NCBI GenBank assembly: GCA_903861205.1
Contig: CAIOTC010000017.1
Span: 1-42,525 of the forward strand
DNA: 42,525 nt
Reading direction: 5' to 3'
From: an uncultured bacterium
GTDB taxonomy: Bacteria; Patescibacteriota; Minisyncoccia; Phycocordibacterales; DATDWN01
Both the position numbers and the translations under genes were made by a program. A model generated the notes under the pieces. The model was not told where the DNA came from and searched no databases. It was given only the letters and a program-made list of their open reading frames with translations. Positions 173-32,700 of this stretch are shown one piece after another; the stretch's first letter is position 1, and each line of letters starts with the position of its first letter.

Positions 173-1279
173 TTATTTTAGGCCATTATTTAGATACTCC
201 ATTATAATTTCATGAACCTCATCGGCGTTTTCCGCTTCCATCAATTTCATTCGCAATTCTTTGGCACCATCAAAGCCATTTACGTACGCTTTGAAATGTT
301 TTTTCATGACGGCAAACGATTTTCCCTGCCCTATCGGCGGTTTCGGCTGAACGATTTCCGAAAAAAGTTTTGTGTGTTCGTCGAGAACTTTTAGTTTTTC
401 AGGAACCCCAAGGGGAACCCTTAAATTTCCAATTCCCAAGGGTTCCCCTTTGGGTTCATTCGATGCGGGTGCGAACAACCACGGGTTGCCGAAAATGGCG
501 CGGCCGATCATCACGCCGTCGCAGCCGGTTTCGCGCGCTTTTTGTTTGGCGTCCGCTACGCTCGTCACATCACCGTTGCCGAAAATGAGTGTCTCACTTT
601 TTTCTCCGTTTGGTCTGCGCCAAGCATCGCGAATCTCCACAGCGCGTTTTATATGTTCCCATCGCGCCGGCACCAGCGAGAGTTCTTTTCGCGTCCGAGC
701 GTGAATGGTGATAACCGCCGGTTTCGTTTCGAGCAAAGCCGGTAACCATGTTTCCAGTTCATTTTTATTCCAGCCAATTCGAGTTTTGACGGAAATTGGT
801 ATCTCCCCGAGGAGAGACCTTGGGGTGCCTAAGGACTCACCTCGGGGAGACCTCTGAATGCGGGCGCCTTGTTTGGCGGCCAAAATAATTTCCTGCGCCA
901 GTTTAGGATTCTGCATTAGCTTCGCGCCGGCGCCCTGCTTTTCCACGCTTTTGTCCGGACAACCCATGTTGATGTCGATGCCGTCAAAACCAAGTTCGAC
1001 GGCCAGCTCGGCGGCTTTACGCATCATCTCCGGATCGCTCGTAAAAAACTGCGCCACGATAGGTCGTTCGCTTTCATCGAAAGCCAAATCGCCGATCAGC
1101 GCTTCCCTACCGCCCAGAAAAAGTCCGTCCGCCGAAACAAACTCCGTCCACATCACGTCCGGCTTGCCGTATTTGGCAATAATTGCTCGAAAAGCCCGAT
1201 CGGTAACATCCGCCATCGGCGCCAGGCACAATATTGGCTCGCCCTTCTTTTCTTTTTTTAACTTCTGCCAAAAATTCAT
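173..1279 (-). CDS. dus: tRNA-dihydrouridine synthase (Dus family). Start moved to the ATG giving MNFWQKL; the track ORF begins at an upstream TTG.
   Basis: LCLAPMADVTDRAFR, GFDGIDINMGCP and KTRIGW motifs are typical of the Dus TIM barrel. The gene contains two in-frame hairpin segments (403-457, 802-850). Confidence 0.9.
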   Translation of the reverse strand: MNFWQKLKKEKKGEPILCLAPMADVTDRAFRAIIAKYGKPDVMWTEFVSADGLFLGGREALIGDLAFDESERPIVAQFFTSDPEMMRKAAELAVELGFDGIDINMGCPDKSVEKQGAGAKLMQNPKLAQEIILAAKQGARIQRSPRGESLGTPRSLLGEIPISVKTRIGWNKNELETWLPALLETKPAVITIHARTRKELSLVPARWEHIKRAVEIRDAWRRPNGEKSETLIFGNGDVTSVADAKQKARETGCDGVMIGRAIFGNPWLFAPASNEPKGEPLGIGNLRVPLGVPEKLKVLDEHTKLFSEIVQPKPPIGQGKSFAVMKKHFKAYVNGFDGAKELRMKLMEAENADEVHEIIMEYLNNGLK

Positions 1280-1295
1280 AGTACGTGTATTAAAC

Positions 1296-1459
1296 CACAA
1301 AACAAAAAATTTTCAAAAAATCTTGTCGAGACGAAGCAATTTTGGGGGCTCACGGACGGCGGCGGGCGGAGTGCGAGCGCAAAAAATAGCAATTTTTTGA
1401 CGCGCACCCCAAAATTGCTTTGACTCGTAAGAGATTTTTTGAGAATTTTTTGTTTTGTG
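1296..1459. repeat. Long-hairpin intergenic element, family L copy 1
   Basis: The 28-nt outer arms cacaaaacaaaaaattttcaaaaaatct / agattttttgagaattttttgttttgtg match 27/28. Inside are the junction motifs cttgtcgag ... ctcgtaagag shared with the other L copies. Confidence 0.8.
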
Positions 1460-1462
1460 ATT

Positions 1463-2293: not shown

Positions 2294-2305
2294 TGAATTT
2301 TTAAA

Positions 2306-3577: not shown

Positions 3578-3603
3578 AATAAATATAGTATATAACAGAA
3601 TGG

Positions 3604-3641: not shown

Positions 3642-3892
3642 TTCGAGAACTTCGTTGGTCCTCTAGAAGATGTATGTTTTCAACTTTTGACAATCCTGAA
3701 GAAACCAGAGTATTCTATAAAACTCCTTTCTCCGCTTTCCCAAGGCGGTATCTTAGGGAGGGAAAGACCGGAAATGAACGTTGGTCTTTAATCAAACTAT
3801 CACAAATGCAAAATTTTGCAAATGTTAGTCAGAGAGGGGCATCCTCTCGATTCGGGGTTGAGAAGATGCCCCTCTCTGATATAATTATTATC

Positions 3893-4796: not shown

Positions 4797-7043
4797 ATGA
4801 CAAAACTTTTAATCGTTGAATCTCCGGCAAAAGCAAAAACAATTTCAAAATATTTGGACGGCAAGTACGAGGTGGTCGCCAGTGTCGGACACATTCGTGA
4901 TTTGCCGAAATCAAACAAAATCGCCATCGATATTCCAGGCGGTTTTATTCCGCATTACGAAATTTCCAAAGGCAAAGAAAAAATTGTTTCGGAAATAAGA
5001 TCGCTCGCTAAAAAAGCTGACATTGTCCTGCTAGCCACCGACCCCGACCGCGAAGGCGAGGCAATCGCTTGGCATATCGAACAGCTCATCAGAGGTGATT
5101 TTCCAAATTCCAAAGTCAAAAAAACGGAAACCGACGACAAAATTAAACGTGTCAGCTATCACGAAATCACCAAAGAAGCTATCGAAGAAGCTCTGGAACA
5201 TCCGAGGGAAATCGATCAGAATTTGCGCCAAGCCCAGGAAGCTCGACGCGTTTTGGACAGGCTTGTCGGCTACGATTTATCCGGACTCATCTGGAAAAAA
5301 GTGCGTTACGGACTTTCAGCCGGACGCGTTCAGTCGCCCGCTTTGCGCATCATCATGGAACGCGAGCGCGAAATCCGCGCTTTCAAATCGCACAAGTTCT
5401 GGGTTATTTCCGCCGATGTTATTCCCCAAGGTGACACCTTGGGGGAAAAGTTTACCGTTGTCTGCGAAAAAGAACCGACCATCAAGGGCGAGGTAGAGCA
5501 GATTATTTTGGACGCTGAAAAAGCCGGAAAAGAAAACAGCTGGTACGTCAAAGATGTCAAAGAAACGCAAGTTAAGAAAACTCCGCGACCACCGTTCATC
5601 ACTTCCACGCTCCAGCAGTCGGCCAGCACGCGTCTCGGTTTCGCTCCATCGCGTACAATGGGCATCGCTCAAAAACTTTACGAATCCGGTTACATCACAT
5701 ACATGCGCACAGACTCAACCAACCTCTCTCAGCTCGCGCTCGGCCAAATCGCCGGTGAAATAGAGAAAAGATTTGGTAAAGATTTTTTGCAGTTCAGAAA
5801 ATATGCAGCCAAAAGCAAAAATGCCCAGGAAGCCCACGAAGCAATTCGCCCGACGCACATGTCCGTTGAAAAAGCCGGGCACACCGATGAACAGCAAAAG
5901 TTGTACGAACTTATCTGGCACCGCACACTCGCTTCGCAGATGCGCGACGCCGAAACTTTGCGAACAAAAATCACAGCAAACGTGGCTGGCGACAAAGTTC
6001 CAGATTTTTCCTCTGTCGGTTCGCGTGTCATTTCTCCCGGCTGGCTTTTGGGCGACCCTGCTTCGCGAGGCGAAGATGTGGAATTACCGAAAGTAAAAAC
6101 TGATGAAAATCTTACGCTTGAAAAAGTTAGCACTGAGGAAAAAGAAACGGAACCGCCGACAAGATATTCCGAAGCCGGATTAGTCAAGGAATTGGAAAAA
6201 CGTGGCATCGGCCGACCTTCGACGTACGCTTCGATTATCAAAACGATCGAAGACCGCGGATACGTAGAAAAAATAAACAAAGCTCTTGTGCCGACGGACA
6301 CAGGCGATGTCGTTTCGTCATTTTTGGAAAAAAATTTCGAAAGTTACATCAGCGACGATTTCACTGCCGAGATGGAAGACAAACTCGACCTTATCGCTGA
6401 GGGCAAGGAAGACTACACCAAGATGCTGACAAAGTTTTACAAGCCGTTTTTGGCTGACGTCAAAGCCAAAGATAAATTGGACAAAGTGACAAACCTCGGC
6501 GACGCCGATCCAAAATTCAAATGTCCGATTTGCGGAGGTCCGATGATTATCAAACTTTCGCGTGGCGGGAAATTTTTGTCATGCGCCAAATATCCGGACT
6601 GCGACGGGGCGCTGACCATGGACGGACAGGAAATCAAAAAAGATGAACCGATCGGTGTTGATCCGGAAAGCGGTTTGCCAATTTTTGTCATGATTGGAAA
6701 ATATGGACCTTATGTACAGCTCGGCGAACGAGCCAGTGGCAAAGGTAGCACAAAGGCCGCCAAACCGAGAATGGCTAGTGTGCCAAAAGGCAAGGATTTG
6801 TCGACGATTACTTTGCAGGAAGCGCTAAAATATTTATCGCTGCCGCGCGTCCTCGGCGTCCATCCGGCTACGGGCGAAAAAATTTCCGCCAATGTCGGAA
6901 TGTTTGGACCGTACGTCGTTCACCAAAAAGATTTTCGGTCGCTCAAAGCGCCAGATGATGTTTACACCGTCGAACTCCCCCGCGCTCTGGAAATTTTCGC
7001 TCAAGAGAAGAAAAAACGCGGGTTTGCGAAGAAGAAAAAGTAA
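4797..7043 (+). CDS. topA: DNA topoisomerase I
   Basis: A TOPRIM start (LLIVESPAKAKTISKYL), the active-site region YITYMRTDS and a C-terminal Cys4 zinc ribbon (CPICGG...CAKYPDC) are present. The size is 748 aa. Confidence 0.95.
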   Translation: MTKLLIVESPAKAKTISKYLDGKYEVVASVGHIRDLPKSNKIAIDIPGGFIPHYEISKGKEKIVSEIRSLAKKADIVLLATDPDREGEAIAWHIEQLIRGDFPNSKVKKTETDDKIKRVSYHEITKEAIEEALEHPREIDQNLRQAQEARRVLDRLVGYDLSGLIWKKVRYGLSAGRVQSPALRIIMEREREIRAFKSHKFWVISADVIPQGDTLGEKFTVVCEKEPTIKGEVEQIILDAEKAGKENSWYVKDVKETQVKKTPRPPFITSTLQQSASTRLGFAPSRTMGIAQKLYESGYITYMRTDSTNLSQLALGQIAGEIEKRFGKDFLQFRKYAAKSKNAQEAHEAIRPTHMSVEKAGHTDEQQKLYELIWHRTLASQMRDAETLRTKITANVAGDKVPDFSSVGSRVISPGWLLGDPASRGEDVELPKVKTDENLTLEKVSTEEKETEPPTRYSEAGLVKELEKRGIGRPSTYASIIKTIEDRGYVEKINKALVPTDTGDVVSSFLEKNFESYISDDFTAEMEDKLDLIAEGKEDYTKMLTKFYKPFLADVKAKDKLDKVTNLGDADPKFKCPICGGPMIIKLSRGGKFLSCAKYPDCDGALTMDGQEIKKDEPIGVDPESGLPIFVMIGKYGPYVQLGERASGKGSTKAAKPRMASVPKGKDLSTITLQEALKYLSLPRVLGVHPATGEKISANVGMFGPYVVHQKDFRSLKAPDDVYTVELPRALEIFAQEKKKRGFAKKKK

Positions 7044-7250
7044 AATTGCATTTTCATAGACACGCATAAATCGCTGGTGCGATTTTGCTATGCTCGGAAA
7101 TCAAGAAAACAATCGTCCTCGATACAGAGCCCTTTCGCAAACGGCGTCCTAGGGCGCCGCCCTTGCTGCGCAGGGTCGCTGCTTCGGGCTTCTTTCATCT
7201 TCGTCGTTGTTTTCTAATTTCCTGCGCAAGTCTCTGAAAATGCAATTTTA
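7041..7250. repeat. Long-hairpin intergenic element, possible divergent family L member (copy 2)
   Basis: Perfect 16-nt outer arms taaaattgcattttca / tgaaaatgcaatttta start on the topA stop codon. Inner arms are ggaaatcaagaaaacaa / ttgttttctaatttcc. The junction motif is degenerate. Confidence 0.6.
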
Positions 7251-7300
7251 CTTTTTCAGTGGTAATTTTTCAGAAAATCACTACAATAGAGACGAACCTG

Positions 7301-7356: not shown

Positions 7357-7357
7357 C

Positions 7358-8782
7358 ATGACCGATATCAAAGAAATCATTTCCCTTCTTCATGAACCAA
7401 CCGAAAAAGACAAGGAGCTTGTTCAAAAAGCTTGCGATTTTGCTTTGCGCGCACATGCAGACCAGAAGCGTTTGTCAGGCGAGCCATATTTCAATCACGT
7501 GTTTGCCACGGCCAAAAATATTGCCGAGCTGGGCATGGATGCCACAACCGTTTCGGCCGGATTTTTACACGACGTTGTGGAAGACGCCGGAGTAAAACCG
7601 GAAGATTTAGAAAAAGAATTCGGAAGTGAAATCAGATTTTTAGTTGAGGGTGTAACAAAATTGGGAAAAATAAAATACCAAGGAACTTCACGTTACAACG
7701 AGAGTTTGCGGAAATTTTTCATAGCTGTGTCACAGGACATCCGCGTGCTCATCATCAAACTCTGCGACCGTTTGCACAACATCCAAACTTTGCAATATGT
7801 GCGACCAGAAAAACAACTGCGCATCGCCAAGGAAACACTGGAAATTTACGCGCCACTCGCCTACCGCCTCGGAATCAAAAAACTCCAGAGAAATTTGGAA
7901 GACACGTCGTTTGCTTACGTTTATCCGGAAGAATCGGAAAAAATAAAAAAATTACTGAATGTTAGAAAAGAGGAACAGGAAAAACTTTTGCACGAATTTC
8001 AAAAATCACTCAAAAAAGAATTGGCAAAAAACGGCATCGTGGAGTTTCGCATAGATCATCGAGTCAAAAGTCTGTACAGCTTGTACAAAAAACTTCAGAA
8101 ATACGATTGGAACGTGGAAAATATTTATGACATCTCGGCGCTCAGAATTACCGTCAAAGAAGTTCAGGATTGCTACAGAGTGCTCGGCATCATTCACGGT
8201 TCGTGGCGACCTTTGCCAGGCAGAATCAAGGATTACATCGCCACACCAAAACTGAACGGTTATCGCTCGATCCACACTACTGTTTTTTCCGGCGACGGTG
8301 GAATCATCGAAGTCCAAATCAGAACGGAGGAAATGGACAAGGAAGCGGAATTCGGAATCGCTTCGCATATTTCCTACAAAGAAGGAAAAAAATCAGGATC
8401 AGCGAATCAAAACCTTTTGTGGATAAAAAATTTGGCAAAATACAACAAGGAAAGCGGTGATGAATTTTTGGCAGATATTAAAACGGATTTTTTTGAGGAA
8501 AGAATTTTTCTTTTTACTCCGAAAGGCGATGTCATAGATTTGCCGGCAGGCTCGTCCGCTGTCGATTTTGCCTACAACATCCACTCCGATATCGGCAATC
8601 ATATGTCAGGCGTCAAAATCAACAACAAATTTGTGGCGCTCGACACAGCTTTGCAGTCCGGCGATTTGGTGGAAATCGAAACAAAAAAATCGGCTAAGCC
8701 GAGTCACAAATGGTTGGAATATTGCAAAACAACGATTGCCAAAAGGCATATCAGAAATGCTTTGGAAAACAGGAAAAATTAA
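7358..8782 (+). CDS. relA: RelA/SpoT homologue (HD hydrolase, ppGpp synthetase and TGS domains; no ACT domain)
   Basis: The HD motif HDVVEDA, the synthetase core YRSIHTTV...EVQIRT and the TGS segment FTPKGDVIDLPAGSSAVDFAY are present. The size is 474 aa. Confidence 0.9.
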   Translation: MTDIKEIISLLHEPTEKDKELVQKACDFALRAHADQKRLSGEPYFNHVFATAKNIAELGMDATTVSAGFLHDVVEDAGVKPEDLEKEFGSEIRFLVEGVTKLGKIKYQGTSRYNESLRKFFIAVSQDIRVLIIKLCDRLHNIQTLQYVRPEKQLRIAKETLEIYAPLAYRLGIKKLQRNLEDTSFAYVYPEESEKIKKLLNVRKEEQEKLLHEFQKSLKKELAKNGIVEFRIDHRVKSLYSLYKKLQKYDWNVENIYDISALRITVKEVQDCYRVLGIIHGSWRPLPGRIKDYIATPKLNGYRSIHTTVFSGDGGIIEVQIRTEEMDKEAEFGIASHISYKEGKKSGSANQNLLWIKNLAKYNKESGDEFLADIKTDFFEERIFLFTPKGDVIDLPAGSSAVDFAYNIHSDIGNHMSGVKINNKFVALDTALQSGDLVEIETKKSAKPSHKWLEYCKTTIAKRHIRNALENRKN

Positions 8783-8787: not shown

Positions 8788-8910
8788 CAAATTTCTTACG
8801 AGCCAACACTTTTCCGTCGCCAGAATATTTTTCTGCTGAAAAATTTCTTCCTGCTCGTCTCTTCACGGGCTCCGCAATGCGCCGTAAAAGCGTCGGCTCG
8901 ACAAAATTTG
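8788..8910. repeat. Family L element copy 3 (short form)
   Basis: The sequence caaatttcttacgagccaacactttt ... aaaagcgtcggctcgacaaaatttg is about 90% identical to copies at 35812-35950 and (reverse complement) 24610-24744. Confidence 0.85.
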
Positions 8911-11089: not shown

Positions 11090-12601
11090 ATGAACAACTC
11101 AAAAACACTCGGCGGTATTATAAAACAAGCCAGAGAAGAAACCGGTATGACGCAGATTGAATTCGCCAGGAAAATGAAAACGTCTCAGAGCGCCGTGGCG
11201 CGCATCGAAAGAGGCGGGCAAAATCTGACAACCGAAAACGTCCAAAAAATAAGTGAAGCACTCGGCAAAACGCTTTTAAAAGTTGAAAACAAAACCGATG
11301 ATTTTAAAATTGTCGGAGGCAAAAAACTTTCCGGTACGATACAGACCAACACCTCAAAAAACGGCGCGCTCGGACTATTTTGCGCTTCCCTGCTCAACAA
11401 ACAAGCCACGATTCTCCATGGCATTCCGCACATAGAAGAAATCTCCAGAATAATTGAAATTTTTCACAGCATCGGAGTAAAAGTGGAATGGATAAAAGAA
11501 AATTCAGTCAAAATCACTCCTCCACAAAAACTAAAATTGGAATCCCTGAACGCAGATTCGGCCTCAAAAATTCGTTCCGTCATAATGCTTATCGGAGCGG
11601 TCATTCACAAAGAGAAAAAATTTAAAATACCTCATGCGGGTGGGTGCAAAATGGGTGAGCGAACGATTTCCGCCCACAAATATGGACTGGAATCGCTTGG
11701 CGCTGACATAAAAACAAAAGAAAATTTCTACGAAATAACGGTTAAAAAATTAAAACCGAATGACGTCGTCCTCTACGAGGCCAGCGACACCGCTACTGAA
11801 AATTTGCTCATTGCTTCGGCTCTTATCCCCGGAAAAACCACCTTGAGATTTACTCCACCGAACTACCAAGTCCAAGAAGTGTGTTATTTTTTGGAAAAAT
11901 GCGGGGTGAAAATCGAAGGAATCGGCACGAGCACTTTGGTCATTCATGGCATAAATGAAATAAATTCACAAATTGAATATCACAACAGCGAAGACCCGAC
12001 CGAGTCAATGATGTTTATCGCTTCCGCGCTTGTGACGAATTCCAAACTCACAATCACCAGATGCCCGATTGATTTTCTTTCATTGGAAATTTTGAAGTTG
12101 GAAAAAATGGGAATGAAATATAAAAAAAGCAAAGTTTATTTTTCCAAAAACGAAAGGACGCGGCTTTGCGACATAACGATCTTTCCTTCCAAACTTGTGG
12201 CCTTGAAAGACAAAATTCACGCCTCGGCTTATCCGGGCATAAATACGGACAATTTGCCATTTTTCGTCCCAGTCGCTTCGGTGGCCGAGGGAAGCACTCT
12301 CATTCACGACTGGATGTGGGAAAACAGAGCAATATATTTTACCGAATTAAACAGGCTTGGCGCCGACATCACCCTTGCCGATCCGCACAGAGTTTTTGTA
12401 ACCGGACCTAGACAGCTGAAAGGCAACCAGATGGTTTGCCCGCCGGCACTGCGTCCATCCATGATGATTTTGGTGGCCATGCTGGGAGCGAAAGGCGAAT
12501 CGATTTTGCGAAATGTTTATGCCATAAATCGCGGCTACGAAAAAATCGCCGAACGCCTGAACTCCATCGGCGCGGATGTGAAGATAATAAGCGAGATATA
12601 A
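11090..12601 (+). CDS. murA: XRE-type HTH domain fused to UDP-N-acetylglucosamine 1-carboxyvinyltransferase (MurA)
   Basis: Residues 1-65 (GIIKQAREETGMTQIEFARKMKTSQSAVARIERG) form a Cro/C1 HTH. The rest is MurA (KIVGGKKLSGTI, catalytic-Cys loop HAGGCKMGERT). The size is 503 aa. Confidence 0.85.
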   Translation: MNNSKTLGGIIKQAREETGMTQIEFARKMKTSQSAVARIERGGQNLTTENVQKISEALGKTLLKVENKTDDFKIVGGKKLSGTIQTNTSKNGALGLFCASLLNKQATILHGIPHIEEISRIIEIFHSIGVKVEWIKENSVKITPPQKLKLESLNADSASKIRSVIMLIGAVIHKEKKFKIPHAGGCKMGERTISAHKYGLESLGADIKTKENFYEITVKKLKPNDVVLYEASDTATENLLIASALIPGKTTLRFTPPNYQVQEVCYFLEKCGVKIEGIGTSTLVIHGINEINSQIEYHNSEDPTESMMFIASALVTNSKLTITRCPIDFLSLEILKLEKMGMKYKKSKVYFSKNERTRLCDITIFPSKLVALKDKIHASAYPGINTDNLPFFVPVASVAEGSTLIHDWMWENRAIYFTELNRLGADITLADPHRVFVTGPRQLKGNQMVCPPALRPSMMILVAMLGAKGESILRNVYAINRGYEKIAERLNSIGADVKIISEI

Positions 12602-21443: not shown

Positions 21444-21467
21444 AAAACTGAAATTTTTGGAATATAA

Positions 21468-21508
21468 AATCCTCCGGCTTCGCCACCTCCTTTAAGAAAG
21501 GAGGAATT
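21468..21508 (+). repeat. 42-nt two-hairpin unit (family U), forward orientation
   Basis: The unit reads aatcctcc-ggcttcgcc-a-cctccttt-aag-aaaggagg-aatt. Confidence 0.8.
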
Positions 21509-21516
21509 GATGCATT

Positions 21517-21946
21517 AATCTCCCTTTTTTAAAGGGAGTGGCCGAAGGCCGAGGGATTTTTAGTGCATTCCACAATTTTTCTTACACAACTCTCTAAATT
21601 AGTTTTTATATCAATATCTCTGAATCTAATTATTTTGACTCCAGCATTCTTTAAAATCTCATCTCTCACCTCATCATTTTCTATTTTTGCATCATGACTA
21701 ATGCCGTCAATTTCAATTGCAAGATTTAATTTTGAACAATAAAAATCAACTATGTAGTTGTTGATAGGTCTCTGTCTCAAAAATTGGCAACCTAATTTTT
21801 TATCTTTTATTTCTTTCCATAGCAATACTTCAGATAATGTTGATTCGTTCCGTAACTTTTTGGAAAATTTTTTTAGATTTTTATTGTAAATGAGTTTCAT
21901 AAAATCCCTCCCCGCTTCGCGGTACTCCCTTTAAGAAAGGGAGATT
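21517..21946 (-). mobile_element. Candidate compact element: a DUF559 endonuclease gene bounded by inverted family-U units (21517-21558 and 21903-21946)
   Basis: The left end is aatctcccttttttaaagggagtggccgaaggccgagggatt. The reverse complement of the right end is aatctccctttcttaaagggagtaccgcgaagcggggagggatt. The unit pair at 29077-29172 shows the same two-end arrangement with only 12 nt between the ends. Confidence 0.5.
21529..21900 (-). CDS. DUF559 / Vsr-like (PD-(D/E)xK) endonuclease domain protein
   Basis: LLWKEIKDKKLGCQFLRQRPINNYIVDFYCSKLNLAIEIDGISHD...IIRF is the DUF559 pattern. The last 9 codons (NPSAFGHSL*) are encoded by the flanking repeat unit. Confidence 0.8.
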   Translation of the reverse strand: MKLIYNKNLKKFSKKLRNESTLSEVLLWKEIKDKKLGCQFLRQRPINNYIVDFYCSKLNLAIEIDGISHDAKIENDEVRDEILKNAGVKIIRFRDIDIKTNLESCVRKIVECTKNPSAFGHSL

Positions 21947-21956
21947 TGAATGCGGG

Positions 21957-24254
21957 TTATTTCGCCACGGCAACGGCTTGATCAAATGCGACCGAGAGAA
22001 GTTTCGAGCCACCACCGAGACCCATGGTTACGCCGTACAAAATCCCCGCACGGGACATTGTTTCGCGGTTGTGGGTAATGACAATGAGTTGCGAACGTTT
22101 GGAAAGATTTTCCACCATATCGCCATACTTTTTGGAATTGGCTTCGTCGAGAGCGGCGTCTGTTTCGTCTAGAATAATAAACGGCGGAGGATTGACTTGA
22201 GAGATGGCAAAAAGCAAAGCGATGGAAGTCAGTGCCCTCTCCCCGCCGGAAAGCATCATCAAACCTTTCACTTTCTTTTTCGGTAACACAACATCGATAT
22301 CAATCCCATCCTCACTTTCCGCTCCGGTTTCTTCAATGGCAAGGGCAGCCCTTGCCATTTCATCACCGTCTTCATTTTCAAATAGGTCATCAATTTCTTT
22401 TTTCTTGCGTTTTGGCGCGGAAATAACGGACAAGCTGGCCTCACCACCACCGAACATCAGAGCAAAATATTCTTTGAACTGCTGGTTGATTTTTTCCACG
22501 CCGGTTTTGAATTCGTTGGAAAGTCGTTCATCCAAATCTTTTATGAGATCTGTCAGCGAATCGGCCGAACCGGAAAGGTCAGTCAGCTCTTTTGCCAGAA
22601 ACTCATCTCGCTCCGAGGCATCAGTGTATTCTTTCATTACATCGGCCCCACCGATTCCGCCGGCATCTTCCAAACGAATTTTTATTTTTTCGATTGTTCG
22701 TCTGCGTTCTTCCTGATTTGCGCGTGGTTCGTCAAAATCAAAAACAAGCGACTCAAATTGCAAAACAGCCGTGCCAAGCATCATTCCAAGCTCTGTTAAT
22801 TCCCTATTGAAATCCTCTTTGACTATTCGCAAAGTTTCCTCCTCCGACTGCAAGCTGTGAATTTGCGATCTGACTTCCTGCTCCTCCGCCATGATTCTGA
22901 AAACCGCTTTTTCGGCGTCGCGATTGGTATCTTTTTCCGTGTTTATTTTTTCCTGTAAAGCCGAATACTCGCGGGACAATTTCGCTTCGTTTGCAATAAC
23001 ATCACCCGCTTCACTGGCAGCAATTTCCTTTTTTCTCCTCAAATCCGCCAAATCTTTTTGGGCTTCAACCAAAAGCGACGTATCCACCTTGTCTTTATTA
23101 CTTTCAATAAAATCTGACAAAAGTTTTCCAATTTCATCAATTTTCCTTATCAAAATATCCACTTTCTCCTGGTCCCAGGTGTCACCTGGGACCAGTTTTT
23201 TGGAATCGGAAATTATTTGTTCTATTTCTTTTTGAACAACTTCGACAGAAACAAGCGTGACTGTTTTGTGCAAATATGAGTTGGCCAGTTCCTCCTGCTT
23301 TTTTATCATTCGGGCCAAGGAGGTTATCTCACCGTCCAGTTCGCCGGACTGACGTAAAAGCTCGTCTTTCTTTTTTCGCGTTTCGTGAAGTTCCCTCTCG
23401 AGTGAAATCAGTTCGTCCGACATGACATCGCGATGTTGTGCGCCTTCCAAAATTTTCTTGGCTTCGGAGAGTTCCTCTTGCAACTTTTTTTCCTGTTTTT
23501 CCAGCGGATGTTTTTTGCCGGAAATATTTTTCTCAATGCGCTTTATATATTCGTCCTCGCGTTTGCAATACTCCAGCGCTTTATCCTGCAAATCTTTTTT
23601 CATTTCAAGCGTCTTCTCCACTTTTTCCACCTGCTTTTTGAGGAATTTGATATGCGGCAAAATTTCTCGTCGAAGAGATTCCACTTGTGCAATATTTTCA
23701 CGAGTTTTCAAAAGTTTTTTCTCACTTTCCTGTTTTTTGTATTGATAAAGTTTCAAACCGAGCGCATCCTCAATCATGGCTTTGCGTTCTTTGATGCTGG
23801 CATTCAAAATTCTGTCCGCTTCGCCCTGCGAAATAATGTGATGTCCGGACGAACCGATATGCGCCGAATGCAAAAGTTCCAACACATCTCGCAAACAAAC
23901 TTGCGAACCGTTGATGGAATACTCGTTGACACCGTCGCGATGCACAACACGTTCAATGATCACCTCCTCGAAATCCACAGGTAGAAATTTGGATTTGTTG
24001 TCGAAAATTATTTTGACGCTTGCCCGATTCGCTCTAGGCAAATCCCCCGCGCCGTTAAAAATCAAATCTTCGCCTTTTTTGCCACGCAGGGATTTGATCG
24101 ACTGCTCGCCAAGAACAAAAGAAAACGCCTCGGCCACATTGGACTTGCCCGAACCATTCGGCCCAACCACCGCAGTAACATTCGAAGTGAAAAGTAATTC
24201 GCTCTTTTTGGCGAAACTTTTGAATCCGGTGAGTTCAATAGATTTCAGATACAT
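21957..24254 (-). CDS. smc: SMC-family chromosome segregation ATPase, short form (765 aa)
   Basis: The Walker A head (VVGPNGSGKSN), long coiled coil, signature motif LSGGERALT and Walker B FIILDETDAALD are present. I could not recognise a canonical hinge. Confidence 0.8.
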   Translation of the reverse strand: MYLKSIELTGFKSFAKKSELLFTSNVTAVVGPNGSGKSNVAEAFSFVLGEQSIKSLRGKKGEDLIFNGAGDLPRANRASVKIIFDNKSKFLPVDFEEVIIERVVHRDGVNEYSINGSQVCLRDVLELLHSAHIGSSGHHIISQGEADRILNASIKERKAMIEDALGLKLYQYKKQESEKKLLKTRENIAQVESLRREILPHIKFLKKQVEKVEKTLEMKKDLQDKALEYCKREDEYIKRIEKNISGKKHPLEKQEKKLQEELSEAKKILEGAQHRDVMSDELISLERELHETRKKKDELLRQSGELDGEITSLARMIKKQEELANSYLHKTVTLVSVEVVQKEIEQIISDSKKLVPGDTWDQEKVDILIRKIDEIGKLLSDFIESNKDKVDTSLLVEAQKDLADLRRKKEIAASEAGDVIANEAKLSREYSALQEKINTEKDTNRDAEKAVFRIMAEEQEVRSQIHSLQSEEETLRIVKEDFNRELTELGMMLGTAVLQFESLVFDFDEPRANQEERRRTIEKIKIRLEDAGGIGGADVMKEYTDASERDEFLAKELTDLSGSADSLTDLIKDLDERLSNEFKTGVEKINQQFKEYFALMFGGGEASLSVISAPKRKKKEIDDLFENEDGDEMARAALAIEETGAESEDGIDIDVVLPKKKVKGLMMLSGGERALTSIALLFAISQVNPPPFIILDETDAALDEANSKKYGDMVENLSKRSQLIVITHNRETMSRAGILYGVTMGLGGGSKLLSVAFDQAVAVAK

Positions 24255-24609: not shown

Positions 24610-24744
24610 GGCAACAAAATTTCGTCGAGACAATACTTTTTGGGCGCATTGCGGAGTGCGTGAAGACACGAGCAGGAAGAAATTTTCCAGCAGGAAAATA
24701 TTCTGGCGACCAAAAAGTGTTGGCTCGTAAAAAATTTTGTTGCC
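24610..24744. repeat. Family L element copy 4 (short form, opposite orientation to copies 3 and 7)
   Basis: The sequence ggcaacaaaatttcgtcgag ... ctcgtaaaaaattttgttgcc has a reverse complement that aligns along its whole length with 8788-8910. Confidence 0.85.
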
Positions 24745-25449: not shown

Positions 25450-25467
25450 ACACGGAGTATAACACAC

Positions 25468-25540
25468 AAATTTTCAATTTACAATTTCAAATTTTCAATG
25501 AATTTCCCAATGAACCAATTTTCAAAAATTCTTCAATCTA
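25468..25540. repeat. AT-rich hairpin family W, partial copy 1 (upstream of rnc)
   Basis: The sequence ttttcaatgaatttcccaatgaaccaatt matches the centres of the copies at 26780, 34033 and 34512. Confidence 0.6.
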
Positions 25541-25629
25541 CGCTATAGCTGAGATTAAAAAGTTTGCTCACACCAGGGTAGACCGTTGCTGTGCCGTTGA
25601 CTACCCTGGTGAGAGCTCCAAAAAACAGC

Positions 25630-25828
25630 AAAAATAATTAGCAGAATTTCGTCGATGTCGTTTCGTTTTCGGAGCATCCACAGCCCGCGAGCATGGTTTT
25701 GTCAACGACCCCGCCTTCGGGGTGGGGCTCATTGACAAATCGCGGGCGAGGACAGAGAAAATTTTTCGCCGGAAAATTTTCGTCTCCGAAAAGGAAACAA
25801 CTCGTAAGAAATTCTGCTAATTATTTTT
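25630..25828. repeat. Family L element copy 5 (long form)
   Basis: Perfect 21-nt outer arms aaaaataattagcagaatttc / gaaattctgctaattattttt overlap the nusB stop codon. The core shares ccttttcggagacgaaa, ttctctgtcctcg, gatttgtcaatgagcccc, ggggtcgttgacaaaaccatgctcg and ggatgctccgaaaa with 37952-38184. Confidence 0.85.
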
Positions 25829-26711
25829 TCAAAAGTATGTTTATCGCTTTTGTTACCAGCGGAAGAATATCATTGTAAAAATTGAGATCGAGGATGTCGC
25901 CCATTTTGAACCATTTGGCGTCGTCGAGGCCGCCGGATTTGGCAAGTTTGAGATCGACAAATGACGACTCCACCAAAAAGTAAGCCACATGTTTTTTGAT
26001 TTTGCCTTTTTCGGGATGATAAGTGACATACTCATTTTCGCCAAGTTTTTCTTTGATTTCCACATCGAGGCCGATTTCGTCTTTGATTACTTTTTGAACT
26101 TCAGCTTGCGGGTCGGAGCCTTCCACATGGCCCTTTGAAAGCGTCCAGCGGCCGAAAACGTCGTGAACAAGAGCTAGGTAAATATCGTCACCGGCTCGCG
26201 CAAAAACCACCGCGCCGGCCAGGTATTCAATCGGCACGTTCGCGGGAATTACTTTGTTTTTTTTATCCTTGCTAGTTTCGTCCTTGCCCGGTTCGCCAAG
26301 CTCTTTGTAAACCGCGCCGAGCACGCCGTTGACGAACTTGCTCGATGTCTCGCCGCCGAAACTTTTTGACAATTCAATCGCTTCGTTGATGGCCACCTTT
26401 GGCGGAACTTGCGAGTGGTCGGAAAAAAGCAGTTCGTACAAACCGATGCGCAAAATGTTTCTGTCCATCACACTGATCTTGTCGATTGGCCAGTCCGGCG
26501 CCGCTTTTTCGATGACCAAATCCAAATCTTTTTGTTTGTCCAAAACGCCATTGAGCAGATTTTCCATAAACGAAAAATCGCCCATACCGGGAGCGAATTC
26601 CTCTGCGTTGCGAGCAAAAATTTCCGAAGCCTCTTTTGAGCTTTTTTTGTTGAAGTCCCATTCAAATAGGGACTGCAGAACTATGCTTCTGGAAAGGTGC
26701 CTGTTAGCCAT
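25821..26711 (-). CDS. nusB: NusB antitermination factor fused to a C-terminal NUDIX-fold domain
   Basis: The N-terminal ~150 aa are NusB (RSIVLQSLFEWDF, AINEAIELSKSFGGETSSKFVNGVLG). The C-terminal ~140 aa have a NUDIX-like fold signature (GRWTLSKGHVEGSDPQAEVQKVIKDEIGL) with a degenerate Nudix box. Confidence 0.75.
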   Translation of the reverse strand: MANRHLSRSIVLQSLFEWDFNKKSSKEASEIFARNAEEFAPGMGDFSFMENLLNGVLDKQKDLDLVIEKAAPDWPIDKISVMDRNILRIGLYELLFSDHSQVPPKVAINEAIELSKSFGGETSSKFVNGVLGAVYKELGEPGKDETSKDKKNKVIPANVPIEYLAGAVVFARAGDDIYLALVHDVFGRWTLSKGHVEGSDPQAEVQKVIKDEIGLDVEIKEKLGENEYVTYHPEKGKIKKHVAYFLVESSFVDLKLAKSGGLDDAKWFKMGDILDLNFYNDILPLVTKAINILLKK

Positions 26712-26779
26712 GTCTTACAATATAGTGTATCAAATGACAGATATGATATCAACAAACAAGAATTGCGAACTGAACCGAA

Positions 26780-26892
26780 CAATTTCCAATGATCAATTTT
26801 CAATTTTCAATGAATTTTACAATGAACCAATCGTCCAATTGAAGAATTGATTCATTTATTGGAAATTGAAAATTGTTACTTGAAAATTTCCT
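26780..26892. repeat. Family W hairpin copy 2 (between the nusB start and the rpmF stop)
   Basis: The arms are caattttcaattttcaatgaat / attcatttattggaaattgaaaattg. The centre is caatgaaccaatcgtccaattgaagaattg. Confidence 0.75.
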
Positions 26893-27120
26893 TTATCTTC
26901 CTTCCTTCTGATTTGCTTTTGCTTTCTTTGTTCGTTTTTCGATTTTTGCCTGCACGTCCAAAACCTGTCGGCCTTTGTACTGGCCGGTCACTAAAGAAGC
27001 TCGGTGCCGCAAGTGCGGAACACTGGAATTTTTGTCCATGGTGACAGCCGGGTTCGACAATCTGTGATGAGATCGCGTGTTGCCTCGCTGGCTCCTGTTG
27101 TGTCGCATTCGTACTACCAT
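26893..27120 (-). CDS. rpmF: 50S ribosomal protein L32. Start moved to MVVRMRH.
   Basis: MVVRMRHNRSQRGNTRSHHRL...HLRHRASLVTGQYKGRQV matches the L32 pattern (R.sk.r...RRsH..l........c...Ge..l.H). Confidence 0.8.
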   Translation of the reverse strand: MVVRMRHNRSQRGNTRSHHRLSNPAVTMDKNSSVPHLRHRASLVTGQYKGRQVLDVQAKIEKRTKKAKANQKEGR

Positions 27121-28355: not shown

Positions 28356-29048
28356 TCAAACCAGGTTTTTGCAAAAAGATTTGCGATGAAAAAGGGAGAG
28401 ACCGTGAGTTTGAATGGCAGTGCGATGCGCGAGCGTGCCATAACCTTTGTGAATATGAAAATTGTAAAGCGGATATTTTTTGCTCGCTTTGCACATTAGT
28501 TTGTCACGCGAAACTTTTGCCAAAATCGACGCCCAGGCGATAATTTTTTCTTTTTCGTCGCCTTTTATAATAGTAAATTGTTTTACTTGTTTAACAGAAT
28601 ATCCGTTTGTAAGTTCAGCTGGAACTTTTAATCCCCCATCTAATAAAATTTTTAATTTAAAATTTTTAATTTTTAAATAATTTTTAATGTCTAAATTTCC
28701 AAAACCTTTTGCAATGGCTTTTTTGATGCATTTGGAAATTCCGATTTTGTCGATTTCTTTGTTTGAGATATGAACAATTTGAGCTTGCAGAAGGGCACCT
28801 TCTGCAGAATTCGTGCAGAAGGTGCCCTTCTGCAACTGTTCCAAGACTTTTGCATACTTCTCGCGAGATTCCGGAGAAAGTTTTTTGCTGTCTTTGCCGA
28901 GTGGTGGCAAACGCCCCGCCACACCGGCGGGCAAGTTGTTTCGCTTCAGTTTGGCGTACAATTTTTCCTCACACATCACAATCCCCACCGTCACAGGCCC
29001 TGCCAATGGTCCCCTCCCAACTTCGTCAATGCCGATAATGTAGTTCAT
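28356..29048 (-). CDS. rnhB: Ribonuclease HII. Start moved to MNYIIGIDEVGRGPLAGPV.
   Basis: GIDEVGRGPLAGPV, DSKKLS and ASILAKVSRD are RNase HII motifs. The gene carries a 51-nt double hairpin and an AT-rich in-frame block. Confidence 0.9.
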   Translation of the reverse strand: MNYIIGIDEVGRGPLAGPVTVGIVMCEEKLYAKLKRNNLPAGVAGRLPPLGKDSKKLSPESREKYAKVLEQLQKGTFCTNSAEGALLQAQIVHISNKEIDKIGISKCIKKAIAKGFGNLDIKNYLKIKNFKLKILLDGGLKVPAELTNGYSVKQVKQFTIIKGDEKEKIIAWASILAKVSRDKLMCKASKKYPLYNFHIHKGYGTLAHRTAIQTHGLSLFHRKSFCKNLV

Positions 29049-29076: not shown

Positions 29077-29172
29077 ATTCTCCCTTTCATAAAGGGAGTG
29101 GCCGAAGGCCGAGGGATTTTTTGATTTCAAAATCCTCCGCCCTGCGGGCACCTCCTTTAAGAAAGGAGGATT
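29077..29172. repeat. Gene-less pair of family-U units (reverse then forward orientation, 12-nt spacer)
   Basis: The sequence is attctccctttcataaagggagtggccgaaggccgagggatt - ttttgatttcaa - aatcctccgccctgcgggcacctcctttaagaaaggaggatt. Confidence 0.8.
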
Positions 29173-29248
29173 AATGCGTGAGCTATTAAAGAATATCTTA
29201 TCACAAAAATAAAAGCCCCGGCGTTTCCGCGCGGGACTGTACAACTTT

Positions 29249-29659
29249 TTATTTAATCTGATCAATAATAGAAAAAACTTCTCCTTCACCATCGTAACTT
29301 CTTTTACTACCCCTGACACCTACACGTGCGACTTCTCTCAATAATTTGTGTCCTTCTACCGAAAAAGTCACGGCAATCGATTGAGTTTCCCAGTCCTTAT
29401 GAGCAGGATCATATGACACATATACACCGAATGTCTGATTATCTTTCAGATAATCCCATAATCCAATTCTTCCGCCTTTCACATTGTATAACTCAAATGC
29501 CTGACGGATTGCCAATTTTACAGCGGCGTTTTCCGTTTTTAAATTGATAACTTCACTTTTCTTGTTGGTGACCTCAACGTCTTTTTTTATCAAGACTCCT
29601 ACTACCAGCAAATTTGTGATTATCATAGTAAGAACCAGAGCAGCGACTGTTTTACTCAT
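29249..29659 (-). CDS. Hypothetical membrane-anchored protein (136 aa, N-terminal TM helix)
   Basis: AALVLTMIITNLLVVGVLI forms the TM helix. I recognised no family. Confidence 0.5.
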   Translation of the reverse strand: MSKTVAALVLTMIITNLLVVGVLIKKDVEVTNKKSEVINLKTENAAVKLAIRQAFELYNVKGGRIGLWDYLKDNQTFGVYVSYDPAHKDWETQSIAVTFSVEGHKLLREVARVGVRGSKRSYDGEGEVFSIIDQIK

Positions 29660-29750
29660 TCAAAGGAGCTCCTATCTCCACAAGATAATATATATTATTG
29701 TTATACTTTGTCAAGCGAGCGGAAAAGTGAAAATTTGGTACAATGTTGGC

Positions 29751-32700
29751 ATGTCAAAGTTTATCCACTTACATACTCACAGTCATTACAGCTTGCTCAA
29801 TGCCCTGCCGAAACTCGACGAGCTGGTCAAGACTGCCAAGAAGATGGGAATGGCTTCGCTGGCTTTGACCGACAACGGCAATCTGTACGGCGCCATTGAG
29901 TTTTACAAGGAATGCCAGAAACACGAGGTCAAGCCGATCATTGGCGTCGACGCTTATGTCGCCTACCGTTCGCGAAATGACAAACAAGCCGGCATCGACA
30001 AGGAACGCTATCGACTAGTCCTACTGGCCGAAAACGAAACCGGTTACAAAAATTTGATCCAACTCGTCACCATTTCCCACCTGGAAGGTTTTTATTACAA
30101 ACCGCGTGTGGACAAAGAAATTTTGGAAAAATATCACGAGGGACTGATCGCTATCGCACCGTCATTTTCGAACGACATTTCACAATCGCTGGAAACGATG
30201 CATGTGGAGCAGGCGATGGAGCGACTGGAGTGGTACAAGAAAGTCTTTAACAAAAAATCCAACAAGGGGGACCCTTGTGGTTCAGGATTACAAGGGTCCC
30301 CCTTGTTGGACCAAAGTCAGACCTCGGGGAACTTCTTCATTGAAATCACCCACCATCCTGAAATAAAAGGTCACGAGGAAAAAATGAAAAAACTTTTGGA
30401 CTTCGCTAGGCAAACGAACACACCGATTGTGGCGGCGCATGATGTCTATTATATGAATCCCGAGGACCGAGCCGCTCGCGAGACACTCATGGCTGTCATG
30501 AACAACGGCGACATATCCGACAAGTTGGACGAAAAAACGGACGACTTTTCATTCATTTCGCCGGAAACTGCCGAAAAATATTTCAAAAATTTGCCTGACG
30601 CGCTTGAAAACACCGAAAAAATCGCCGAGAGATGCAACTTGAAACTCGAACTGGGCAAATGGGTTTTCCCGAATTACATTTTGGATAGCGGACTTTCATA
30701 TGACGAGGAACTTCGCAAGGAAGCGCTGGCCGGTTTCGAAAAACGCGGGCTTTCGCAAACAGCCGAGGAAATGGAGCGCATGGAGTATGAATTGAAAGTG
30801 ATCAAGGACAAAGGTTACTCGCCATACTTTTTGGTGGTGGCGGACCTGCTTCGCTTTTCGGAAGAAAATGGAATTTTCACAAACATCAGAGGTTCGGTGG
30901 CCGGCTCTCTCGTCACCTACCTGACCGGCGTCACCAAAGTCAATCCACTGGTTTACAAAATTCCGTTTGAAAGATTTCTCAACCCAGAGCGTCCGTCGGC
31001 GCCCGACATCGACATGGACTACGCCGACAACCGTCGCGACGAGGTGATTGATTACGCTCGTCGAAAATACGGCGTGAACAACGTTGCCCAAATCGGTACG
31101 TTCGGTACGATGGCCGCCCGCGGATCCGTGCGCGACGTCACTCGCGCCATGGGTTTTGCCTACTCGCTCGGAGACTCGATTGCCAAACTGATTCCGATGG
31201 GCGCGCAGGGATTTCCCATGACCATCGACCGCGCTCTCAAAGAAGTGCCGGAGTTGAAAGAATTGTACAAAACTCAGGCCGATGTCAAAAAAATAATCGA
31301 CATGGCCAAAAAAATCGAGGGTTGTGCCCGCCACATCTCGGTGCACGCTGCCGGCGTAGTTATTTCGCCCACAACGCTGACCGATTTCGTTCCGCTTCAG
31401 TACGATACCAAAGGCGACAACAAAATCATCACACAGTACGACATGCACGCCGTCGAGGACGCCGGGCTTTTGAAGTTTGACTTTCTCGGCATCAGAAACC
31501 TTTCCATTTTGGCCGACGCCGTTCATCGCGTCGAAGCGATTGAAGGCAAAAAAATCGACATCGAACAAATTCCGCTCGACGACAAAAAAACTTTCGACAT
31601 GCTCACTCGTGGAGAAACGATCGGACTTTTCCAGCTCAACGGCGACGGTATGACGAGATGGTTGAAAGAACTCAAACCGACAACCATTTTCGATATCAAC
31701 GCCATGGTCGCTTTGTACCGACCCGGCCCGATGGAGTGCATTCCGCAATACATCGAGCGCAAACATGATCCGAAAAAAATAAAATTTCTTGATCCGCGAA
31801 TGAAAACGATTTTGGATCAATCATTCGGCGTCATCACTTACCAGGACGACGTGCTCATGTGCGCCATCAAACTCGGCGGATATTCCTGGCTCGAAGCCGA
31901 CAAACTGCGTAAAGCCATGGGCAAGAAAATTCCGGCTGTTATGCAGGCCGAGAAAGAAAAACTTCTGGCCGGACTTTTGAAAAATGGAATGTCGCCAGAA
32001 AAAGCGGACGAGCTGTGGAAGTTGATTGAGCCGTTTGCCGCCTACGGTTTCGGCAAAGCGCACGCCGCCAGCTATGGACGCGTGGCTTACCAAACTTCGT
32101 ACATGAAAGCCAACTTCCCTGCTATATATATGTCAGCCGTTCTGACTGCCGAGTCGGGCGACGTGGAAAAAGTGGCCGAAATCATTGGAGAGTGCAAGCG
32201 TATGAAAATTCCCGTTTTACCACCGGATATAAATCAGTCGTTCGGCGGGTTCAGTGTGGTGAAAGGCAAAAAAAGGGTGCCCCTTTTAAATCCTGACGAA
32301 AAGGGGCACCCTTTTTCTGATTCCGAATCAGACAAAATCAGATTTGGATTGACCACCATTAAAAATTTCGGTGAGGGAATCGGCGCGTCGATTATTGCCG
32401 AAAGAAAAGCGAACGGCGAATTCAAATCGCTTTCCGATTTTCTGCGCCGGATCAAAGATAAAAACTTGAACAAAAAATCGCTCGAGTCGCTCATCAAAGC
32501 CGGCGCGATGGATCGGTTCGGCGAACGCGCCACGCTTCTTTACAACTTGGAAACGTTGCTCGCCTTCAACAAAGAAGAACGAGCCAAGGAAACGGACCAG
32601 ACTTCCCTTTTCGGACTTTTGTCGGAGCCGGAAAAAGCGAGCGAAATTCATTTGGAAAAAGCACCGGTTTCAAATCCGGCCGATGCTTTGTTGTGGGAAA

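Follow-up and report, generated by a model that had tools for sequence, protein, structure and literature searches.

What are the palindromes that pepper the housekeeping genes of this stretch of DNA, and by what route did they come to lie there in frame? The stretch, hereafter the window, comprises 42.5 kb of a metagenome-assembled genome (MAG) of a Paceibacteria-type member of the Patescibacteria, or candidate phyla radiation (CPR), and is the basis for all window counts given here. An initial annotation had listed 14 palindromes in it. All 14 sequences are present at the positions given there, and the genes had been assigned correctly (dusB, serS, dprA, topA, relA/spoT, parB, murB, murA, miaA, murF, clpB, rnr, smc, rnc, nusB, rnhB, dnaE, ftsA and ftsZ). 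Homologues of the window proteins come from Patescibacteria, Parcubacteria or Paceibacterota MAGs. We conclude that the palindromes probably constitute a family of very short non-autonomous repeats, akin both to the repetitive extragenic palindromic (REP) sequences with their hairpin-forming doublets (REPINs) and to the Rickettsia palindromic elements (RPEs), that was copied to new places in one Paceibacteria lineage. The elements are non-random, most are insertions whose orthologous sites are either empty or occupied differently, and copies in unrelated genes and genomes are homologous.

Perfect stems of at least 10 bp with a loop of at most 8 nt occurred 13 times in the window compared with 0.7 in 100 dinucleotide shuffles, and for perfect stems of at least 12 bp the corresponding values were 7 and 0.02. 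Coding controls were carried out with 24 coding sequences (31.5 kb), in which either synonymous codons were shuffled with the protein kept or the order of the codons was shuffled. Hairpins with a score of at least 12 numbered 10 in the genuine coding sequences compared with 0.08 and 0.05 in the two controls, respectively, while those with a score of at least 14 numbered 7 compared with 0. Shuffled controls, which the initial annotation had named as the comparison on which its proposal should stand or fall, thus came nowhere near the observed density. From these data we conclude that all but two of the 14 listed palindromes lie far beyond chance, and that neither codon usage nor protein sequence explains them. 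The claim did not hold for the remaining two. The stem of the serS palindrome is within chance because stems of at least 9 bp arise 2.6 times per dinucleotide shuffle, and this palindrome is probably outside the family; the 15-nt topA hairpin is likewise at chance level and is not a family member. Four elements had been missed, i.e. those in dprA, at the 3' end of clpB and in two intergenic regions (coordinates are collected in the table below). The robust set consists of 12 elements inside intact coding sequences, one that straddles a stop codon and two that are intergenic.

The elements take two forms with the common core CAAGG-N5-CCTTG, namely single hairpins of 21-27 nt and inverted doublets of 40-55 nt. 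The shared core reported by the initial annotation was borne out: AAGGGNNNCCCTT occurs 7 times in the window compared with 0.03 expected, CAAGGNNNNNCCTTG 5 times compared with 0.02, and AAGGN5CCTT 13 times compared with about 0.65 (a uniform-base estimate). Its description of the longer elements as two small inverted hairpins was also accurate. A doublet consists of two hairpins of the single type in inverted orientation with mutually reverse-complementary loops, so that the whole can fold either into a pair of small hairpins or into one stem of 18-25 bp. The unit AAGG-N3-5-CCTT is common to six doublets of the window, whose hairpin centers are 27-29 nt apart; one of these six spans a stop codon, and another sits inside an intergenic palindromic element, at its apex; the spacing in the rnhB doublet of a related genome (locus L082, see below) is 28 nt. 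Among the palindromes as listed, those of serS (18 nt) and miaA (32 nt) are perfect, and those at rnr 19770, rnr 20703, smc 22335 and smc 23169 (23-27 nt) are mismatched at the central base only. The rnhB element and both dnaE elements are inverted repeats with perfect arms of 18-22 nt and spacers of 7-11 nt (7-15 nt for the long inverted repeats overall), whereas the arms of the two dus elements are 20 nt long and contain one or two mismatches. The first topA palindrome is genuine, its extent being corrected from 5423-5447 to 5424-5444. Predicted RNA folds of the elements had a minimum free energy (MFE) of -10 to -45 kcal/mol with z-scores of -3 to -10, such that stems of 18-25 bp with MFE values down to -45 kcal/mol are predicted in the transcripts.

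Center alignment of 34 hairpin units from nine genomes gave the consensus nnnnCAAGGnnnnnCCTTGnnnn, in which the AAGG/CCTT positions are at least 90% conserved. Compensated changes were observed at 10 of the 10 stem pairs; as these units were picked as palindromes, their pairing is due to ascertainment and the covariation statistic is inflated, and the conserved core is the informative part. A measure of arm identity with fixed 4-nt flanks was uninformative because the inner and outer flanks are asymmetric.

Every coding element keeps the reading frame and is free of stop codons, as the initial annotation had claimed. For this reason the segments are most likely translated rather than bypassed by the ribosome, which argues against the analogy that it had drawn with the byp elements of yeast mitochondria. 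A design of the elements for openness in all six frames was ruled out, since 57 of 84 frames were open compared with 59.7 ± 3.8 for random coding segments. As they are no more open in unused frames than random segments, the in-frame, stop-free state reflects a survivorship filter rather than design. Readings of the elements as DNA-uptake sequences or restriction sites were set aside, as no more than 4-5 nt is constant and the elements vary from gene to gene. On viral contigs, 13 AAGGG-N3-CCCTT doublet loci proved to be direct tandem repeats or terminators unrelated to the family.

The closest relatives obtained were L082 (Logan SRR22388057), with DnaE 84% identical over aligned residues (81% in the best tblastn segment) and SMC 82% identical, and L081 (GCA_039740895.1), with values of 82% for DnaE (78% in the best tblastn segment), 71% for SMC and 74% for RNase R. 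Next came L001, L002 and about 80 metagenomic loci at 57-71% identity. A profile search of genome contigs yielded mostly distant relatives without inserts, which were used as background. Five contigs from other assemblies are 100% identical to the window over the parts of the rnr-DUF559-smc region that they cover. The rnr elements are covered by five of the five, the first smc element by three and both smc elements by one. Because the identical sequence was recovered in five other assemblies, the palindromes are not an assembly artefact. Among the otherwise identical contigs of this organism, one (L164) diverges completely upstream of rnr (window 19194) over its positions 1-275, which could reflect a chimeric assembly or a rearrangement.

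Copies of the elements are related across loci, frames and genomes. The rnhB doublet of the window (..GCAGAAGG-gca-CCTTCTGC..) is related to that of L081 (..GCAGATGG-tcc-CCATCTGC..), a perfect 55-nt palindrome. The two differ by an A/T change that is compensated in four of the four arms, and they are read in different frames (QKGTFCTNSAEGALLQ vs CRWSPSAESADGDHLQ). Even the two hairpins of a single doublet are read in different frames, and one dnaE doublet runs in the orientation opposite to the other. The non-palindromic spacers resemble one another in dnaE doublet 1 (GGTTCAGGATT), dnaE doublet 2 (CGTCAGGATTT, reverse complement), dprA (GATTCGGGGTT) and rnhB of L082 (aGTTCTGTATt); a second spacer type is common to the first dus doublet and the intergenic doublet at 38055. 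The first smc hairpin (ATGGCAAGGGCaGCCCTTGCCAT) nearly matches one in proS/thrS of L081 (ATGGCAAGGACcGTCCTTGCCAT), and the two rnr singles are one compensated stem pair apart. L001 carries GTCAAGGACtGTCCTTGAC-type elements in three genes, while L106, L157 and L082 each have a variant of their own in two genes; in L106 a single and a doublet are made of one unit. These related copies in unrelated genes, in both orientations and different frames, with similar spacers and compensated stems, indicate that the elements are DNA-level entities, which probably spread by copy-and-paste.

The family is concentrated in the window genome. Strong intragenic palindromes reach 0.33 per kb of long open reading frame (ORF) in the window compared with 0.018 per kb in 1.63 Mb of 162 other loci, a difference of about 19-fold; this genome is thus in a lineage-specific burst. 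Similarly, of 13 occurrences of AAGGGNNNCCCTT in 2.56 Mb of loci, the window holds 7 and L082 another 3.

Alignment with relatives indicates that hypervariable loops have received most of the elements as insertions of the whole element. Each site that the window has in smc, rnr and dnaE is empty or carries a different palindrome in L082 and L081. At smc site 2, near the mid-point of the protein, LVPGDTWDQ is cleanly inserted as 8 additional residues (+24 nt, the palindrome being 27 nt long). L081 has nothing at this site and L082 a doublet of another kind, whereas the window has a single hairpin. The peptide of smc site 1 is absent from L082. The two dnaE elements occupy two hypervariable loops, of which L081, L082 and most relatives have short versions. 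Site 1 is empty in L081 and L082 and holds a different palindrome in L001, whereas site 2, at +48 nt relative to L082 for a 47-nt palindrome, is occupied in the window, L106 and L084. All three rnr elements are absent from L081; the site of the first lacks an element in L001 and L002 as well, and the 67-nt element amounts to a 9-13 aa insertion plus replacement. The second dus element is a 17-19 aa insertion relative to the Dus structures of T. maritima and E. coli (1vhn, 6ei9), and the topA element lies in a region that is variable relative to PDB TopA.

The rnhB element lies in a loop that is hypervariable in the clade of the window, whereas about 100 relatives at a greater distance have a fixed helix-turn segment of 16 residues in its place. 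The window, L081 and L082 have different doublets there, L001 has a single hairpin, and the palindrome of the window itself is absent from this site in its relatives; many palindrome-like peptides occur at the site in other homologues. RNase HII is a protein of 216 aa in the database, the start of the 244-aa ORF being spurious and located inside a hairpin loop. In an AlphaFold model the insert (residues 61-72) is a low-pLDDT loop between a helix (45-60) and a strand (73-80), which places it in a predicted surface loop away from the catalytic core; the inserts in the other proteins lie in segments that are hypervariable in alignments. Six RNase HII homologues (P0011, P0022, P0066, P0073, P0083 and P0120) have related inserts of 35-45 residues in the same loop, e.g. 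..SSRKTRKISAEIFALSRLPGSERFSLETLVNE.., which may represent a larger element family. The initial annotation had asked whether the palindromes are insertions or overlays on existing sequence. Insertion prevails in dnaE, smc, rnr, rnhB and the second dus element, whereas miaA is an overlay.

These comparative data suggest that the elements are mobile, and the following scheme would accommodate them. Insertions would presumably land anywhere in the chromosome, and inside genes the survivors would be those that comprise a whole number of codons, contain no stop and fall in a tolerant surface loop. Such a filter would lead to repeated use of the same loops, i.e. the helix-strand loop of RNase HII, the two DnaE loops and the SMC mid-point, and the 7-19 added residues would most likely be translated as an extra loop. 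Copying or maintenance may proceed via a single-stranded hairpin or fold-back intermediate, with one arm serving as the template for the other, because the copies are internally near-perfect yet differ from one another by compensated changes. Fold-back template switching might at times perfect chance quasi-palindromes in place, as in miaA, and would also account for the doublet nested at the apex of a larger palindrome. The candidate enzyme would be an HUH/Y1-type transposase encoded elsewhere in the genome, or else a replication template switch would act without an enzyme of its own. The elements are more probably selfish or neutral than functional.

Several results weigh against such a mobile family. 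No pair of filled and empty sites was found within the population, the six assemblies being identical, and the divergence among copies in the genome is rather high for a transposon family with recent activity. The miaA element shows no indel relative to four relatives and the structures 2qgn and 3d3q; its peptide KKRIFIRLRRRMKMGMLDE aligns without gaps to RI..RV/RL....G[LM][IL]DE in these proteins, and its left arm retains the conserved K-R-I-x-x-R-L. The first dus element is only partly an insertion (about 5 aa, plus overlay of a linker, relative to PDB Dus). In rnhB, the left arm of the simple hairpins (QG..L[DG]) may derive from ancestral K-Q-G codons, which fits growth in place. Among the window genes there is no transposase or other mobilizing gene, and no parent insertion sequence was seen. 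A tblastn search with E. coli RayT gave no match better than E=0.9 in 2.74 Mb of loci, which at about 20 kb per genome is weak evidence. Neither a target-site duplication nor a conserved target was evident in the flanks of 30 elements, for which the nearest genomes, at 74-84% protein identity, are too divergent to resolve junctions at the nucleotide level.

A more radical possibility, which we consider speculative, is a lineage-wide 'palindrome drive', in which hairpin-templated copying by AAGG/CCTT-seeded fold-back and switching between loci would operate with no transposase. If true, this process would make hairpins in place, paste them elsewhere and continuously add loops to essential CPR proteins. 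In a variant of this idea, the AAGG-N5-CCTT core may be the recognition site of a putative dimeric nuclease or recombinase, for which a DUF559 endonuclease cassette is the only candidate lead. Its gene encodes 123 aa with a Vsr-like endonuclease fold (PDB 3hrl, E=1e-10) and is flanked by units of about 45 nt, each consisting of AAATCC(C)TCC, a small GC hairpin and then CTCCCTTT-nnn-AAAGGGAG or CCTCCTTT-aag-AAAGGAGG, a palindrome of anti-Shine-Dalgarno and Shine-Dalgarno sequences; one such unit supplies the ribosome-binding site of the gene. The GC hairpin co-varies across seven copies of the unit (GGCCgaaGGCC, GCCCtgcGGGC, CCGCttcGCGG and GGCttcGCC), and two pairs of units in the window occur without the gene. 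The cassette looks mobile because in L082 (6260-6770; 80% protein identity) it is found at another location, nusB/rnc. A DUF559 homologue is present in three loci, among them the window and L082, which between them hold 10 of the 13 AAGGG-N3-CCCTT hairpins.

Growth in place, with no mobile element, is an explanation that we regard as unlikely. According to this model, template switching turns AAGG-like seeds into hairpins and then into doublets, which would be tolerated as the lineage would lack nucleases that remove hairpins. That template switching preferentially corrects imperfect inverted repeats to perfect ones is an established model (PMC5941160, PMC7202029), and it fits the miaA palindrome, which overlays a conserved helix with no indel, the largely overlaid first dus element, and the serS site, which differs in length by only 2 residues from a PDB homologue, Aquifex SerRS. 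The canonical rnhB codons for K-K-Q-G-K already hold a CAAGG-like sequence, minimal QG-xx-L-[DG] hairpin peptides occur in the rnhB loop of many relatives, and palindromes are nested at the apex of other palindromes. However, only the miaA element has the properties of a template-switch product, i.e. a perfect repeat, no change in length and an ancestral arm. The dnaE, smc, rnhB and second dus elements are net insertions whose lengths match whole palindromes rather than one arm. Moreover, the model does not account for non-palindromic spacers that are alike between different genes and genomes, for near-identical elements of 21-25 nt in unrelated genes (L106, L157, L001, L082 and the rnr gene of the window) and across genomes, or for the constant doublet geometry of 27-29 nt. 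As miaA is an overlay, perfecting by template switching is needed as a second process beside insertion.

A selected function, with AAGG-N5-CCTT serving as the DNA site of a dimeric protein or with the mRNA hairpins acting in RNase III cleavage or translational pausing, appears improbable. In its favor are the fixed doublet spacing, the excess of AAGGN5CCTT and a core conserved across nine genomes while the surrounding pairs co-vary, and the stems are long enough for RNase III, whose gene rnc lies within the window. However, positional conservation is lacking, with sites empty or differently filled in the closest relatives; the density differs about 19-fold between the window genome and its relatives; the elements are found in protein loops that are hypervariable and not at set positions of a transcript; and the covariation is inflated by the choice of the units. 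Lastly, chance, codon bias or assembly artefact can be dismissed for 12 of the 14 listed elements, as only the serS and 15-nt topA hairpins were within the range of shuffles that otherwise never attained the observed counts, the sequence was identical in five other assemblies, related elements occur in independent MAGs and metagenomes, and all elements keep the reading frame.

Table. Palindromic elements of the window, followed by other repeats and unusual genes (positions in the window).
Feature	Position	Description
dus1, inverted doublet in dusB	403-457	gene on - strand; units AAGGGGAACCCTT, AAGGGTTCCCCTT; encodes EPKGEPLGIGNLRVPLGVP
dus2, imperfect doublet in dusB	802-850	encodes SPRGESLGTPRSLLGEI; RNA MFE -34.7 kcal/mol
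serS perfect palindrome, 18 nt	2704-2721	9-bp stem; chance-level
dprA doublet	3829-3879	encodes SQRGASSRFGVEKMPLSD; spacer GATTCGGGGTT similar to dnaE spacers
topA single hairpin	5424-5444	CCCCAAGGTGaCACCTTGGGG; 10-bp stem; encodes PQGDTLG
topA weak hairpin, 15 nt	6061-6075	6-bp stem; chance-level
miaA perfect palindrome, 32 nt	13498-13529	overlay on conserved helix; encodes KKRIFIRLRRRMKMGMLDE
clpB 3' end doublet across stop codon	16216-16255	AAGGTTCGACCTT / AAGGTCGAACCTT
rnr single hairpin, first copy	19769-19793	TTTAGCAAGGACaGTCCTTGCTAAA; encodes LARTVLAK
rnr imperfect inverted repeat, 67 nt	20414-20480	32-nt arms, 81%; encodes LDNASSPGVNGEATWSPGVGALS; MFE -39.4 kcal/mol
rnr single hairpin, second copy	20703-20725	TTAGCAAGAACtGTTCTTGCTAA; also encodes LARTVLAK
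smc single hairpin, site 1	22335-22359	AATGGCAAGGGCaGCCCTTGCCATT; encodes EMARAALAI
smc single hairpin, site 2	23169-23195	CTGGTCCCAGGTGtCACCTGGGACCAG; encodes LVPGDTWDQ
Intergenic inverted repeat, rnc/nusB	25566-25616	18-nt arms, 15-nt spacer
rnhB doublet	28785-28835	22+7+22 nt, perfect arms; encodes LQKGTFCTNSAEGALLQ; MFE -42.5 kcal/mol
dnaE doublet, hot spot 1	30258-30310	21+11+21, perfect arms; spacer GGTTCAGGATT; encodes SNKGDPCGSGLQGSPLLD
dnaE doublet, hot spot 2, opposite orientation	32270-32316	18+11+18, perfect arms; encodes KKRVPLLNPDEKGHPFS
Intergenic doublet	38055-38096	AAGGTCTGGCCTT / AAGGCCAGACCTT; apex of ~230-nt palindromic element
DUF559 gene with flanking ~45-nt units	21465-21948
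Pairs of ~45-nt units without gene	29080-29174, 39425-39512
121-nt intergenic repeat	8789-8909, 24617-24737 (inverted), 35821-35941	three copies, 88-94% identical; immediately after relA, immediately after ftsA and in the smc-rnc interval; no Rfam match
Large intergenic palindromic elements, 170-230 nt	25630-25828, 37952-38184	homologous pair; terminal inverted repeats of 28-49 nt
Elements of similar architecture	1293-1462, 7034-7257
AT-rich palindromic repeats, ~100 nt	25461-25526, 26773-26905, 34015-34132, 34503-34619	AATTTCCAATTT-type motifs; intergenic, around rnc, nusB and upstream of ftsA
Direct repeat, ~130 nt	33650-33782, 41488-41621	79-88% identical, intergenic
11-bp hairpin	41474-41500	overlapped by second copy of direct repeat
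SMC	21957-24254	765 aa vs profile ~1180
RelA/SpoT	7358-8782	ends at 474 aa vs profile ~700
MurA	11090-12601	N-terminal XRE/HipB-type helix-turn-helix, residues 6-62
NusB	25821-26711	296 aa, double the usual length

Other repeats are also present in the window, in which an Rfam scan identified three tRNAs only. In the homologous pair of large palindromic elements, one apex is of the TTCG type and the other is replaced by 72 nt containing an AAGG..CCTT doublet, i.e. the one at 38055; the sister copy at 25630 lacks this doublet. In distant Patescibacteria loci (L004, L006, L008, L013, L014, L030, L043, L046 and L059) we observed a nearly identical, terminator-like bidirectional hairpin, AAAAAACCCTTAT-aaa-ATAAGGGTTTTTT, presumably downstream of one conserved gene.

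How do these elements compare with known systems? The initial annotation was aware of no such system in this kind of genome, and our search of full-text literature agrees with this, having returned no description of palindromic, miniature inverted-repeat transposable (MITE), REPIN or REP-associated tyrosine transposase (RAYT) elements of such a kind in Patescibacteria/CPR. The REP/REPIN-RAYT systems of Pseudomonas and Enterobacteria are alike in structure, with imperfect palindromes of about 20-25 nt occurring singly or as inverted doublets with a spacer (PMC3116915, PMC3337134). As in the window, an entire doublet can fold into one long hairpin, the families are genome-specific and a single-stranded hairpin intermediate is suspected. 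However, their hosts belong to another phylum, and REP sequences are extragenic by definition, whereas the window copies are mostly in coding sequence and in frame. In addition, REP sequences end in a GTAG or CGTC tag (PMC3733652), whereas no such tag is common to 30 elements of the window family, in which the conserved part is the AAGG/CCTT core of the stem. REPIN systems also have a cognate single-copy RAYT (Y1 HUH transposase), and none is present among the genes of the window.

The closest analogy, as the initial annotation recognized, is to the RPEs of Rickettsiales, which are about 100-150 bp in length (Ogata et al. 2000, 2002, as summarized in PMC10969869). According to that summary they too are palindromic repeats lying in frame in unrelated housekeeping genes, with peptides compatible with the fold of the host protein, and their hosts are likewise host-dependent bacteria with small genomes; 44 intragenic copies are given for R. 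conorii (PMC10969869). In their size they differ from the elements described here, which span 21-67 nt, the hosts are Rickettsiales rather than Patescibacteria, and no kinship at the sequence level is expected. By analogy, the window family resembles a miniature and much denser version of the Rickettsia coding palindromes. With a genome of about 1.27 Mb for R. conorii, the RPE density derived from the summarized copy number is about 0.035 per kb, compared with about 0.3-0.4 per kb of coding sequence in the window.

Other known palindromes fit less well. The mitochondrial coding palindromes of Nematomorpha (PMC6649704) are also perfect inverted repeats in genes with both arms translated, but they extend up to 284 bp and show neither a family with a shared core nor evidence of hot spots and insertion like that in the window. 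Quasi-palindrome template switching (PMC7202029, PMC5941160) accounts for the perfection of the arms, for the compensated changes and for the overlay in miaA, but as a local mutational process it moves nothing to unrelated loci by itself. It is likely to take part in making the elements or in keeping them perfect. Palindromic repeats with coding potential were reportedly described in Methanocaldococcus jannaschii by Suyama, Lathe and Bork in 2005. Intragenic MITEs such as the Coxiella QMITE and the enterobacterial repetitive intergenic consensus (ERIC) are similar in being small palindromic repeats that are sometimes in frame (PMC10969869, PMC5896051). QMITE, ERIC and the M. jannaschii repeats are larger, mostly intergenic and rarely intragenic. 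A classical MITE derives from a parent insertion sequence and has terminal inverted repeats and a target-site duplication. Here the whole element is the inverted repeat, and no flanking duplication is visible at junctions that relatives of this distance do not resolve. The GC clusters and byp elements of yeast mitochondria are short hairpin-forming mobile insertions in essential genes, the byp elements being skipped by the ribosome. Thus byp elements need not keep the frame, whereas every coding element of the window does so and is free of stops. Notable features of the window family are its very small element size, its high intragenic density and its streamlined host.

Elements of this kind can fragment assemblies and lead alignments and gene trees astray. 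They also form a natural map of where DnaE, RNase HII, SMC, RNase R, Dus and TopA tolerate insertions, and as 18-25 bp stems are predicted in housekeeping mRNAs, a link to RNase III is directly testable. A burst of selfish or mutational palindromes with a density of about 0.3 per kb of coding DNA is unexpected in a streamlined, host-dependent genome and raises the question of whether functions that process hairpins are lacking. The family would offer a concrete source for many of the lineage-specific loop insertions in CPR/Patescibacteria proteins. More generally, elements of REP/REPIN size can live mainly in essential genes, in which case the 'extragenic' location of REP sequences would be an outcome of selection rather than of mechanism.

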